Below are positions 19,899-22,673 of a stretch of DNA of 64,000 nucleotides, in pieces (the first letter of the stretch is position 1; every line of letters begins with the position of its first letter). Source of the DNA: Escherichia phage NHEP29. The stretch is from sequence record PQ511150.1, one strand, 5' to 3'. A program made the translations under genes and the position numbers. A model generated the notes under the pieces. It had not been told where the DNA came from. It saw only the letters and a list, made by a program, of their open reading frames with translations, and made no database searches.

Positions 19899-20386
19899 CT
19901 CAAATTCCTGCATTCGGTAATAAAACGTTCAACTTCATTATTCTTGGCTTTTATCTTGTCTTTATGTTCCTGTAAACTACTTTTAATAAGATTAATAATG
20001 ATGGCTGCAGTACCGCCGCCAATGATGCCACCAACAACACTTATGATACTAGATGCTAATAAGATAGCAATAATATCAACAAAACCGAAAGAACTCACCT
20101 TAGTACTGAAAAACCATATAGATGGTACAAATATAATCCATCCTGTTATCCATTGGCACTTATTGAAAAACTTTTCAAGCTCAGCTTGAGTTGTTCGTAT
20201 TACTTCATCGATAGGTTGATATCCATTAATGTATCTGTTCACGATAATACCTGCCGGCTGGTCGATTTTAAATTCTTGGCAAATACGTTTCACTAAGTAG
20301 GATGGACATCCTGTCCAATCTACTGAATAGTATGAAATACCTTCATTGCCATCGTCTATATTAGACCAATATGTTTTGTTAATCAT
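19895..20386 (-). CDS. Membrane protein, FIxECR C-terminal family
   Basis: 163 aa, 2 TM helices, C-terminus ERFITECRNLR. Confidence 0.6.
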   Translation of the reverse strand: MINKTYWSNIDDGNEGISYYSVDWTGCPSYLVKRICQEFKIDQPAGIIVNRYINGYQPIDEVIRTTQAELEKFFNKCQWITGWIIFVPSIWFFSTKVSSFGFVDIIAILLASSIISVVGGIIGGGTAAIIINLIKSSLQEHKDKIKAKNNEVERFITECRNLR

Positions 20387-21072
20387 TACCAGCCTTCCAT
20401 AGGGAATTCCAGATAAACTTGAGCATTGACACGAATTTCATTGGTAATCTTTTTAACTCGGTCTGTATTACGAGATACACGTCCGAACCAACGCCATCCA
20501 TTACTAATTGCACGAGAACCAGTGTGCCATGTTTGCCAATCAAACTGAAGAAGAGTACGATCTGGAGCTTCCCATTTCTCTAGTTCACCTTTTTCAATTT
20601 TTTCGAGGACTTCTTTGTGCCACTGACGATAGATAAGTTCGCCATCAGGAATCTGACTGAACTCTGCAGTTCCTGTTGCAAAATGAGTAGGACACACGTC
20701 AGCGTTAACAAGACCAAGAATATGTTCAGACAAATAGCGAGGATTGTCATAATCAGGTTGTCCTGCAGTAATAAAGTGTTGACCAACTGGAATATCAGGG
20801 CGCGGTACGTCATCATGGTGATATCCAGGAATAGCAGGATACCAACCAGGCATCAGCATGTGGACTCGTGAATCAAATACAACCTGGTCGGTGTTCCAAT
20901 CATCTGGCAAGTTCATGATGAAGCTGCGAGTAATAGGACCACCATTATTATAAGCAAATTCTAAACTACAGTTGAAGAACATAGGCTCGTTTTTAATCTG
21001 GTCATTTTTAATCGCGTGAGCAAAACCACCTACTGCACGAGCTTGACTATTAAACACTTTAGAACTATTCAT
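20386..21072 (-). CDS. Hypothetical protein, possible 2OG-Fe(II) oxygenase fold
   Basis: 228 aa with HHD about 97 residues before WHTG and RVS 14 residues after, matching HxD...H...RxS spacing. Confidence 0.55.
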   Translation of the reverse strand: MNSSKVFNSQARAVGGFAHAIKNDQIKNEPMFFNCSLEFAYNNGGPITRSFIMNLPDDWNTDQVVFDSRVHMLMPGWYPAIPGYHHDDVPRPDIPVGQHFITAGQPDYDNPRYLSEHILGLVNADVCPTHFATGTAEFSQIPDGELIYRQWHKEVLEKIEKGELEKWEAPDRTLLQFDWQTWHTGSRAISNGWRWFGRVSRNTDRVKKITNEIRVNAQVYLEFPMEGW

Positions 21073-21073
21073 A

Positions 21074-21379
21074 TTATTTTCCTCGACATTCTTTAATGAA
21101 ATTTTCTAGATTGGTAGATTCAATAGCTTTTTTACGAGCTTCTGCGTGTTCTTCTTCGGACAATTTACGTTTATAATTGACCCAGACATTATGGTCGAAA
21201 CCAGACGTGGCATATAATAACAAAGCTCCAACGAATAGCAAAAACGGCGATAAGAATACAAAACCAGGAACACCATCCATATCGTAAGCCTTTTGTAATA
21301 CTGCAACAGAAAGGGTTGCGTAAAAAGGCGATGCAAGTATTGTTAAAAGACCGATTCGATTGGTTTCTGTTAATTTCAT
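21074..21379 (-). CDS. Membrane protein, FIxECR C-terminal family
   Basis: 101 aa, 2 TM helices, C-terminus ENFIKECRGK. Confidence 0.6.
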   Translation of the reverse strand: MKLTETNRIGLLTILASPFYATLSVAVLQKAYDMDGVPGFVFLSPFLLFVGALLLYATSGFDHNVWVNYKRKLSEEEHAEARKKAIESTNLENFIKECRGK

Positions 21380-21395
21380 AATATTCTCCTCAAGT

Positions 21396-21434
21396 TGATA
21401 GGACTACTATAACATGGCCCTATCAGTTTGTACA
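21396..21434 (-). promoter_or_regulatory. PeSL-like early promoter
   Basis: TGTACA, 17 nt, TATAGT, AGTCCTATCAAC. Confidence 0.55.
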
Positions 21435-21435
21435 C

Positions 21436-21636
21436 TTATTTTGACATTTCTTCGATGTCACGACGATACCCATCACGAACTTCACGAAGAGCTTCAAGGC
21501 CACACATAGGCTCGATACCAGTAATGTGAACTTGATTAATCTGATACTCTACATCTTCTAACTGAGCGAAAACATAACGACGTTCTGCTGCACAACCAGG
21601 TTTAGCTTTACCGAAACGTTTATTCAAAGTAGTCAT
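21436..21636 (-). CDS. Hypothetical protein
   Basis: 66 aa from ATG 21636 with GGAG SD. Confidence 0.5.
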   Translation of the reverse strand: MTTLNKRFGKAKPGCAAERRYVFAQLEDVEYQINQVHITGIEPMCGLEALREVRDGYRRDIEEMSK

Positions 21637-21663
21637 TTTTATATCTCCATTCACTCATTTGTT

Positions 21664-21704
21664 TTGATAGGTCTATAGTATCAACAACTACAGACCTTGT
21701 AAAC
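21664..21704 (-). promoter_or_regulatory. PeSL-like early promoter with inverted repeat AGGTCTATAG..CTACAGACCT
   Basis: GTTTAC, 18 nt, TACTAT. Confidence 0.55.
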
Positions 21705-21716
21705 TGTTTTGTGAAA

Positions 21717-22673
21717 TTATTTGAAAGGTTTTACCATGTGGAAATTTTGTTTGAAACGTTTGACGTAATCGTCATGTCCTAAGCTTTGGTACATACTTAC
21801 TACTTTGCTGTAGTTTTCCCAGGCATACTCACGGAACCAACCGGAGGTGATGCTTGTACAGACCTTTTCCAATGCCATCATGAAACTGGCTTCAGGGTTA
21901 ATTTTAAAGTCATTAGGAATCTGAGAACGTTCTAATGCTAGTACACATGATTCTTCATATACACCGGCCAATTTGACCATTTCTGGTAACGATTCGAACT
22001 TCTCGCGTGAGGTCATGACTTCAGAACCGTCTTTCATATAAAATGTATATGCTGGACGGTCTGTTAGTGCAATGGCTTCATGAATAGTATCATGGTCATA
22101 TGTATAGATGTCATCTTTAAAGAACGCACTTTTAGAAGTGTCAAGAACTGGGTGAGCATAGTTCAAGGTTTCTTTCTGGCGTTTCAGCATAATTTCAGTA
22201 AGTTCATCGTTCAGTGTAACACCTTTACCACGAAGATACTGAATATGGTTCATAGTCTTTAAAAAGAACGGATTATTTTTCTTGAAACGATGAGACATTT
22301 TAATTGCAAGACATATCTCAGGAGTTGCCCAGTAAAACCCAGTCAAACGGTCTTTAGTCAAATTTTTCTTGGCGTATTTTAAAAGGTCATAAGAAGACGT
22401 GAAATCTTCAGGAGTGAGTTCACCGACTAATTCACGGACATTAGTGATTGCCGGAACAATATATGCTTCAAAATGAGTTTCGCGTCCATTATGGAAGCAT
22501 TTGAAAACTTGGACATCAGGGTTATCTTGGTGAACATATACACCCATCATTTGATTTTTGAATGCATTCCAAGAACCTTGGTCCGCAATAAAGTCCCAAT
22601 CGCTATTTTTGATAGCGCTAGAATCAATAAGACCATGATAGTGAAGTGCACGAGAACCAATAACTAACATCAT
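21717..22673 (-). CDS. Hypothetical protein, possible nucleotidyltransferase fold
   Basis: 318 aa; N-terminal VIGSRAL...SDWDFIAD loosely resembles a GS...DxD motif. Confidence 0.55.
   Translation of the reverse strand: MMLVIGSRALHYHGLIDSSAIKNSDWDFIADQGSWNAFKNQMMGVYVHQDNPDVQVFKCFHNGRETHFEAYIVPAITNVRELVGELTPEDFTSSYDLLKYAKKNLTKDRLTGFYWATPEICLAIKMSHRFKKNNPFFLKTMNHIQYLRGKGVTLNDELTEIMLKRQKETLNYAHPVLDTSKSAFFKDDIYTYDHDTIHEAIALTDRPAYTFYMKDGSEVMTSREKFESLPEMVKLAGVYEESCVLALERSQIPNDFKINPEASFMMALEKVCTSITSGWFREYAWENYSKVVSMYQSLGHDDYVKRFKQNFHMVKPFK

Follow-up and report, generated by a model that had tools for sequence, protein, structure and literature searches.

Escherichia phage NHEP29 (PQ511150.1) was analysed over a stretch of 64,000 nucleotides, hereafter the window, which is 96-98% identical to Mosigvirus phages (RB69-like; Straboviridae, Tevenvirinae). 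The present work concerns two of its open reading frames (ORFs), ORF1 and ORF2, and a group of small acidic proteins encoded upstream of ORF2 (Table 1). A reading made from the sequence alone, without database searches, had described two accessory proteins with weak enzyme-like signatures at 20386-21072 and 21717-22673, the first resembling a 2-oxoglutarate (2OG)-Fe(II) oxygenase and the second a nucleotidyltransferase. Both ORFs are indeed found there, on the minus strand, which that reading had left unstated, and both enzyme assignments are borne out by the structural models and alignments described below, the signatures proving strong rather than weak. What it had overlooked is the pairing of ORF2 with the small genes at 23004-23798. 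In the records that we saw, both genes are labelled 'hypothetical' nearly everywhere, with only a few Acinetobacter phage records naming the ORF2 homologue a putative nucleotidyltransferase, and no literature on either gene was found under the DUF, PHROG or RB69 ORF names.

ORF2 and the small proteins encoded upstream of it

The N-terminus of ORF2 reads MMLVIGSRAL...NSDWDF, just as the sequence-only reading had picked out. Residues G6, S7, D25, D27 and E69 are each identical in 48 of 48 homologues, and the first four are still invariant in an eight-sequence set that includes homologues of 28-31% identity. In addition, about 45 C-terminal positions are invariant in the 48 homologues, including K125, H128, K139, R165, E168, H174, H194, D195, H198, E240, E241, C243, E248, R249, K270 and C272. 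The Pfam domains of ORF2 are DUF7277 (residues 2-101) and DUF7275 (residues 120-305), with nothing else, and sequence searches of Pfam, NCBIfam, PADLOC and the Protein Data Bank (PDB) yielded no named enzyme family.

The structural model of ORF2 (predicted local distance difference test, pLDDT, of 92.6) has a nucleotidyltransferase fold of the DNA polymerase beta (Pol-beta) type, the best structural matches being MenT1, ANT(2''), TglT and LnuA. In this regard, the features that mark the Pol-beta superfamily are all found, namely the pattern hG[GS]...[DE]h[DE]h, a third carboxylate and the alpha/beta core fold. Conserved residues and model together indicate that ORF2 has a catalytically intact core of the MenT/AbiEii/ANT(2'')/Lnu structural class of nucleotidyltransferases. 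In such an enzyme, G6-S7, D25-x-D27 and E69 would bind the nucleoside triphosphate (NTP) and Mg2+, with the acceptor expected in the C-terminal helical domain (DUF7275).

At the DNA level ORF2 is 97.9% identical to RB69ORF134c, and homologues occur in 733 phage records. Species genomes hardly contain the family: among 185,579 of them five loci were found, all in metagenome-assembled genomes. Short-form homologues from Streptomyces, Gordonia and Vibrio phages (28-31% identity) keep the GS and DxD motifs; three of them are shorter by about 60 residues, among which is the E69 strand, and have V or I in place of C272. One short-form gene, gp16 of Gordonia phage Smoothie (L084:4350-5420), has six clustered tRNA genes about 1.2 kb downstream of it.

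Clustering of the neighbours of distant ORF2 homologues disclosed a single recurrent neighbour, a small ORF located upstream on the same strand, whose product ends in W-[IVLMF]-[SA]-S-[SN]-x-x-C directly before the stop codon. The strict form of this tail motif occurs in 52 of 80 ORF2 loci, and all 88 ORFs that carry it lie upstream on the same strand. A hidden Markov model (HMM) finds a tail protein in 66 of the 80 loci, and relaxed variants of the motif (e.g., W-D-S-S-T-C) add a further eight, giving 74/80 by HMM or relaxed motif; when ORF2 sequences are grouped at 70% identity, the partner is present in 26 of 28 clusters. As a control, ORF1 loci without ORF2 were inspected, and a tail ORF was seen in just one of 58 (Fisher p = 5e-24). 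The association also holds in the opposite direction: a search that started from the small proteins led to 79 loci, 75 of which have an ORF2-family gene 0.02-2.3 kb downstream, and three of the four exceptions are contig ends. This reverse search relied on two sub-alignments of the small proteins, as these lack a conserved stretch when aligned all together.

ORF2 homologues are preceded by one to four tail proteins, three in this window. These proteins are 65-126 amino acids (aa) long and acidic, with a median isoelectric point (pI) of 4.4. In 23 diverse members the W, both S residues and the terminal C of the tail are invariant, and the small proteins have in common a core motif, I-A-D-x-x-G-x-x-F ... 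Y-G-x-G-x-T-Y-Y; no Pfam family and no informative name is attached to them. In the 101-aa copy of the window, the two tail serines are S97 and S98, and the cysteine is C101. The pair is found in jumbo-phage contigs of 355-371 kb as well as in contigs of about 98 kb, Acinetobacter phage Lazarus also has tail proteins, and RB69 carries all parts of the pair, RB69ORF136c and 139c being two of its small proteins. Our results clearly show that ORF2 and the upstream tail proteins constitute a conserved phage gene pair, for which we found no prior description.

Other neighbours of ORF2 are poorly conserved, the next best being present in 15 of 54 distant loci. It is a metallophosphoesterase gene of the Ser/Thr-phosphatase-like kind (about 247 aa), situated 1.5-2.5 kb downstream of the ORF2 homologue (loci L112-L165, e.g., L124:10543-11286), and its product might act on the same target as ORF2. 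The 79-aa gene (phrog_3723) adjoins ORF2 in many T4-like loci; it is not among the neighbour clusters common to the 54 more distant ones.

ORF1, a predicted Fe(II)/2-oxoglutarate oxygenase

The three motif elements that had suggested an oxygenase are all present in ORF1, as H85-H86-D87, W182-H183-T-G and R198-V-S200. In an alignment of 74 homologues with identities as low as 31% (alignment A2), the sole invariant positions are L73, G83, H85, D87, H183, R194 and R198, while position 200 is S or T in 71 sequences. Position 86 is H in 41 sequences, L in 20 and some other residue in 13 and, because it varies, the true triad would start with H85-x-D87. The His-His-Asp of the sequence-only reading is therefore present in full, but its middle residue does not belong to the triad proper. 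The distal His had been placed about 97 residues further on, which agrees with the distances of 98 residues from H85 and 97 from H86; the Arg-x-Ser also exists, although R198 follows H183 by 15 residues and not by the 14 that had been counted. R194 lies at +11 from H183, and S/T200 is on the same strand (192-201). As judged from this alignment, the conservation of H85, D87, H183, R194 and R198 is far beyond chance.

The AlphaFold model of ORF1 is a double-stranded beta-helix (pLDDT 95.4; predicted template modelling score, pTM, 0.91). A jelly-roll fold and conserved motif residues are the two points on which the sequence-only reading had staked its assignment, and both were found. Jelly-roll fold, HxD...H triad and a basic residue after the distal His together place ORF1 in the Fe(II)/2OG oxygenase superfamily. 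By analogy with the chemistry of that superfamily, H85, D87 and H183 would hold Fe(II), and R194 and R198, with S/T200, on the next strand, would hold the C5 carboxylate of 2OG; oxidative decarboxylation of 2OG would then give an Fe(IV)-oxo species by which the substrate is hydroxylated or otherwise oxidised.

No sequence match to ORF1 was found in Pfam, NCBIfam, PADLOC or the PDB, and the 2OG-oxygenase models of Pfam, including PhyH (PF05721), match none of the 74 family members. The family is large nonetheless: one search gave 1290 homologues, there are 623 representatives when members are clustered at 50%, and the family occurs in 472 phage records. A protein of phage vB_EQ1 has the same sequence as ORF1 (100% identity), RB69ORF132c is 95.6% identical to it, and homologues are encoded by phages of Aeromonas, Klebsiella, Serratia and Erwinia, by 150-kb phages of Pectobacterium and Cronobacter, and by Gordonia and Mycobacterium phages. 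One further locus (L003) has a Mosigvirus-like e/nudE/ORF1 region at 94-100% identity, without ORF2. Outside phages, the family was found in a few Klebsiella contigs of about 110 kb (108-113 kb; P0049, P0053, P0059, P0081), with homologues at 72-77% identity; these contigs may be phage-plasmids or unrecognised phage genomes.

When ORF1 was compared with viral structure models by Foldseek, members of its own family scored E-values of 1e-10 to 1e-16, against about 1e-2 to 1e-3 for cyanophage and giant-virus oxygenases. The 2OG-Fe(II) oxygenases of T4-like cyanophages and giant viruses, which the literature treats as auxiliary metabolic genes, are like ORF1 in being viral accessory genes in variable regions, but their structural resemblance to it is weak and ORF1 forms a separate clade. 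With hydroxylases of the PhyH/EctD type (EctD, EasH, proline hydroxylases and phytanoyl-CoA hydroxylase) the identity in structural alignments is 8-15%. ORF1 is shorter than these enzymes (228 aa vs about 260-290) and has features of its own, a nearly invariant C-terminal Gly-Trp and an N-terminal NEPM motif. Taken together, ORF1 represents a new, unmodelled clade of the known 2OG-oxygenase superfamily.

As for the substrate, the sequence-only reading had considered nucleic-acid bases or small molecules. Oxidation of bases, either in AlkB-like repair or in TET/JBP-like modification, would suit a phage group whose cytosines are heavily modified (PMC13326640). In RB69, however, it is the ThyA homologue gp48 that makes 5-hydroxycytosine, at the nucleotide level, and ORF1 is not among the genes for arabinosylation (PMC13326640), so that a place for ORF1 in the 5-hydroxycytosine/arabinose pathway of RB69 was rejected. 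Homologues also occur in unrelated Aeromonas, Gordonia and Mycobacterium phages. Moreover, ORF1 is acidic (pI 5.7), and in the structural search PhyH/EctD-type and prolyl hydroxylases outrank the AlkB homologues, which appear from the 28th place downwards, with TET/JBP enzymes absent from the top 60 matches. Because of the gp48 route, the acidic pI and the ranking of hydroxylases above AlkB, we regard a role of ORF1 on DNA bases as very unlikely. Our working view is that ORF1 would be a hydroxylase of a host metabolite or of a protein side chain, which seems likelier than DNA. Between E. coli and Aeromonas phages ORF1 is about 81% identical, compared with about 45% for ORF2; being far more conserved than its surroundings, ORF1 may have a well-conserved target, as the sequences suggest.

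The best neighbour of ORF1 is a nicotinamide phosphoribosyltransferase-like gene just upstream of it in six of 53 environmental loci (L026-L081, e.g., L057:6104-7564). A similar gene is found near the ORF2 homologue of Vibrio phage K470.

Gene order and independence of the two genes

In T4 the genes e.2 and e.3 abut, whereas in NHEP29 the e.2-like and e.3-like genes are 3.4 kb apart. The block at 20386-23798, which holds ORF1, two small genes, ORF2, the 79-aa gene and the three tail proteins, is therefore one that T4 is missing at that position. Homologues of ORF1, ORF2 and the small proteins were not found in the T4 regions searched (positions 1-50000 and 64000-74000).

Table 1. Coordinates of the genes, motifs and promoter-like sites around ORF1 and ORF2 in the window.
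Feature	Position	Strand	Remarks
e.3-like gene	23795-24154	minus	
Small acidic protein 1, 101 aa, pI 4.6	23493-23798	minus	tail WVSSSALC; matches phrog_899; putative ORF2 partner
Small acidic protein 2, 90 aa, pI 5.0	23211-23483	minus	tail WIASSHTC; matches phrog_899
Small acidic protein 3, 65 aa, pI 4.1	23004-23201	minus	tail WVSSSYSC; matches phrog_4882
Early-promoter-like site TTTACA-17-TATAGT with TG, overlapping a stem-loop	22970-22998	minus	5' of the 79-aa gene and ORF2; consensus match only
79-aa gene	22702-22941	minus	phrog_3723 (function unknown); between small proteins and ORF2
ORF2, 318 aa, predicted Pol-beta-superfamily nucleotidyltransferase	21717-22673	minus	RB69ORF134c; DUF7277 + DUF7275; phrog_2141; conserved C-terminal helical domain
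ORF2 codons G6-S7...D25-x-D27, predicted NTP/Mg2+ motif	22593-22658	minus	only GS-x-A...SDxD match in the window
ORF2 codon E69, predicted third catalytic carboxylate	22467-22469	minus	48/48; model strand 64-73
Promoter-like/stem-loop cassette	21675-21703	minus	directly downstream of ORF2; terminator annotated at the corresponding place in phage SA79RD
72-aa gene	21436-21654	minus	
Promoter-like/stem-loop cassette	21406-21434	minus	upstream of the 101-aa membrane-protein gene, ORF1 and the e.2-like gene
101-aa membrane protein	21074-21379	minus	stop 1 nt ahead of the ORF1 start codon
ORF1, 228 aa, predicted Fe(II)/2OG oxygenase	20386-21072	minus	RB69ORF132c family; phrog_1843 (function unknown)
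ORF1 codons H85-H86-D87, HxD part of the predicted iron-binding facial triad	20812-20820	minus	H85 and D87 each 74/74; H86 variable
ORF1 codon H183, predicted distal iron ligand	20524-20526	minus	74/74; model strand 182-185
ORF1 codons R194...R198-x-S200, proposed 2OG C5-carboxylate binders	20473-20493	minus	strand 192-201; role suggested by position
e.2-like membrane protein, 163 aa	19895-20386	minus	start codon overlaps the ORF1 stop; 43% similarity to T4 e.2
nudE, then lysozyme e	downstream of the e.2-like gene	minus	

The sequence-only reading had described the two genes as lying among cassette-flanked small genes and membrane proteins, and this setting is as it said. Three early-promoter-like sites of the sigma-70 type overlap stem-loops, and ORF1 and ORF2 are probably expressed early, to judge by such consensus matches. 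The intergenic cassettes that contain the sites are about 40 nt long (22950-22999, 21395-21434 and 21665-21703, minus strand) and combine GTTTACA...TATAGT with the stem-loop GATAGGG...CCTATC, those at 22950-22999 and 21395-21434 being nearly identical. We take them to resemble the promoter-early stem-loops that have been proposed as mediators of gene shuffling in T4-type phages.

Five minus-strand genes (19895-20386, 21074-21379, 23795-24154, 24133-24558 and 24497-25114), at least three of which encode membrane proteins, have in common a C-terminal motif, (E/N)-F-[IV]-K-E-C-R, which is also present in T4 e.3, e.4 and e.5. The ribosome-binding site of ORF1 lies within the codons of the 101-aa gene, after its copy of this motif. 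The window has two tRNA genes only, tRNA-Arg(tct) and tRNA-Met(cat), at 28101-28255 on the minus strand, where T4 has eight at the corresponding place.

ORF1 and ORF2 are inherited independently. Among ORF1 loci from viral contigs, 58 of 80 have no ORF2 within 8 kb, and 57 of 80 ORF2 loci are without ORF1. The two genes are 1-3 kb apart in enterobacterial and Aeromonas T4-like phages, and their homologues are adjacent in Serratia phage 4S, according to locus tags, an arrangement that could be taken to mean that both enzymes serve one pathway, for instance by oxidation and subsequent nucleotidylation of the same molecule. In Yersinia phage phiR1-RT, however, the homologues are 17 kb apart, and the unequal identities of ORF1 and ORF2 between E. 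coli and Aeromonas phages likewise speak against a common pathway. Because the two genes are distributed independently, we rejected a joint pathway and consider it extremely improbable.

Proposed roles of the paired genes and of ORF1

On balance, we think it probable that NHEP29 carries two unrelated, independently inherited accessory enzymes, one of which, ORF2, is paired with the tail proteins. The mechanism that we prefer for the pair is a proposed transfer of a nucleoside monophosphate (NMP) to the tails. In this model, the tail would meet the active site of ORF2, which would attach the NMP to the small protein, either at a serine hydroxyl of the tail or at its terminal cysteine; the modification would serve to mature a family of small effector proteins or to switch them. 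A substrate role of the tail is in line with one enzyme serving one to four paralogues, which have diverged except for the tail and a short core.

Several nucleotidyltransferases of the Pol-beta superfamily modify proteins: CitX and MdcG act on an acyl-carrier serine, and GlnE and GlnD are likewise protein-modifying enzymes. Together with MntA, which acts on HepT (PMC7641770), they are precedents within the superfamily for the attachment of a nucleotide, or of a nucleotide-linked group, to a Tyr or Ser of a co-encoded small protein. MntA, CitX/MdcG and GlnE/GlnD are not among the top structural matches of ORF2, and the analogy holds for mechanism only. The HEPN motif Rx4-6H is absent from the small tail proteins, the 101-aa copy having no His at all and, unlike the partners of CitX/MdcG, these proteins have no acyl-carrier features.

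The pairing could also be explained if ORF2 were a toxin, acting for example by extension of tRNA 3' ends, and the tail proteins were stoichiometric inhibitors that plug its active site in the manner of MenAT1. In this regard, MenT1 is neutralised by an upstream-encoded helical antitoxin of 68 aa that blocks the active site (PMC10435456); here too the small gene comes first, and the two genes are tightly linked. However, one enzyme with one to four divergent small paralogues is unusual for antitoxins, and in the window the pair is not translationally coupled. Furthermore, the ORF2 family is nearly confined to phages, mostly large ones. The DUF1814/AbiEii, PADLOC and NCBIfam models gave no match to ORF2, profile searches against PDB sequences found no MenT, and the pI of ORF2 (6.5) is not that expected of a tRNA binder. 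The C-terminal domain of ORF2 is much larger than that of MenT/AbiEii enzymes and very conserved, with many invariant His, Asp, Glu and Cys residues. Its partners differ from the MenAT1 antitoxin in being acidic, in occurring in one to four copies and in their invariant W-x-S-S-x-x-C tail, of which the available part of that report (PMC10435456) makes no mention for MenAT1. We thus weigh the tail as a substrate above the tail as a plug, because one enzyme may be accompanied by multiple paralogues, the pair is not coupled in translation in the window, and the family is restricted to phages, most of them large, and we judge a toxin with plugging inhibitors to be unlikely.

A further explanation is that ORF2 acts on RNA or on free nucleotides, either by repair or blocking of tRNA 3' ends or by making competitor cyclic dinucleotides, and that the small proteins are merely co-transferred neighbours. 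Enzymes of the MenT class extend tRNA acceptor stems (PMC10435456), and tRNA genes are located 5.5 kb away in the window, while in loci L106 and L107 they immediately precede the ORF2 homologue. Nevertheless, proximity to tRNA genes is no greater for ORF2 (31/80) than for ORF1 loci (30/81), and T4-like loci very near to the query account for almost all of the signal; a tRNA linkage of ORF2 was accordingly rejected. With respect to cyclic dinucleotides, the nucleotidyltransferases of phages Bcp1 and Av-05 produce 3'3'-cGAMP as well as c-di-AMP and are inhibitors of TIR-STING (bioRxiv 10.1101/2022.06.09.495361). These enzymes, reported by Ho et al., resemble ORF2 in being phage-encoded, of the Pol-beta type and equipped with GS and SDxD motifs, and they are carried in anti-defence neighbourhoods. 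Membership of ORF2 in their family was rejected: a BLASTP comparison with Av05_0062 gave E = 0.79, and neither GS-x-AY[GAN]T-x4-SDxD nor the NP-x-hh-[DE] that follows about 60 residues later is present. ORF2 reads GSRALHYHGLIDSSAIKNSDWD; its GS serine and the first Asp of DxD are 18 residues apart, vs 11 in the Bcp1/Av-05 motif, and AY[GAN]T is absent. Fold similarity of ORF2 to cGAS/DncV-like CD-NTases was not observed either. The record of Escherichia phage Av-05 (NC_025830; 120,938 bp), for its part, is classed in the Vequintavirinae and may be a chimeric assembly. Action on RNA or free nucleotides would, moreover, leave the linkage to tail proteins (75/79 and 74/80 loci) unexplained, and we hold it to be quite improbable.

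The small-molecule nucleotidyltransferases ANT(2'')-Ia and LnuA are antibiotic-modifying enzymes whose solved chains comprise 158-175 residues. The context of ORF2 shows nothing related to antibiotics, and its linkage to tail proteins is without counterpart in those enzymes.

Several observations weigh against the nucleotidylation of tails by ORF2 and against the role proposed for ORF1. The linkage can be read in other ways than as modification of the tail; no partner is seen in five or six of the 80 ORF2 loci; the short-form homologues lack both the small-protein partner and the E69 strand; and in the window itself the 79-aa gene and a promoter/stem-loop cassette intervene between the small genes and ORF2. 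As to ORF1, no conserved gene neighbour was found beyond T4-like synteny, and the context gives no clue to its substrate.

In its fullest form, our model would describe a phage-specific system not described before, in which ORF2, with its MenT fold and novel C-terminal domain, covalently nucleotidylates the Ser-Ser-x-x-Cys-COOH tails of one to four small effectors as a switch, probably for host takeover or counter-defence. Separately, ORF1 would stand for a new, very conserved phage clade of 2OG oxygenases whose target is a metabolite or protein of the host. We put this forward tentatively, as a possibility rather than as the expected outcome.

The findings presented here give each gene an enzyme class and named predicted catalytic residues. 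The most interesting result is ORF2, in which a fold already known is joined to a new domain and which has a new, conserved partner. Through the linkage to the tail proteins, DUF7277, DUF7275 and two PHROG families that lack annotation become the subject of a concrete hypothesis. Many of the phages that bear homologues infect E. coli, Klebsiella, Acinetobacter and Aeromonas. If the tails are nucleotidylated, phages would encode a protein modification of a new kind; if they plug the active site, lytic phages would be carrying a toxin-antitoxin module similar to MenAT, and either reading would be useful for studies of phage counter-defence.

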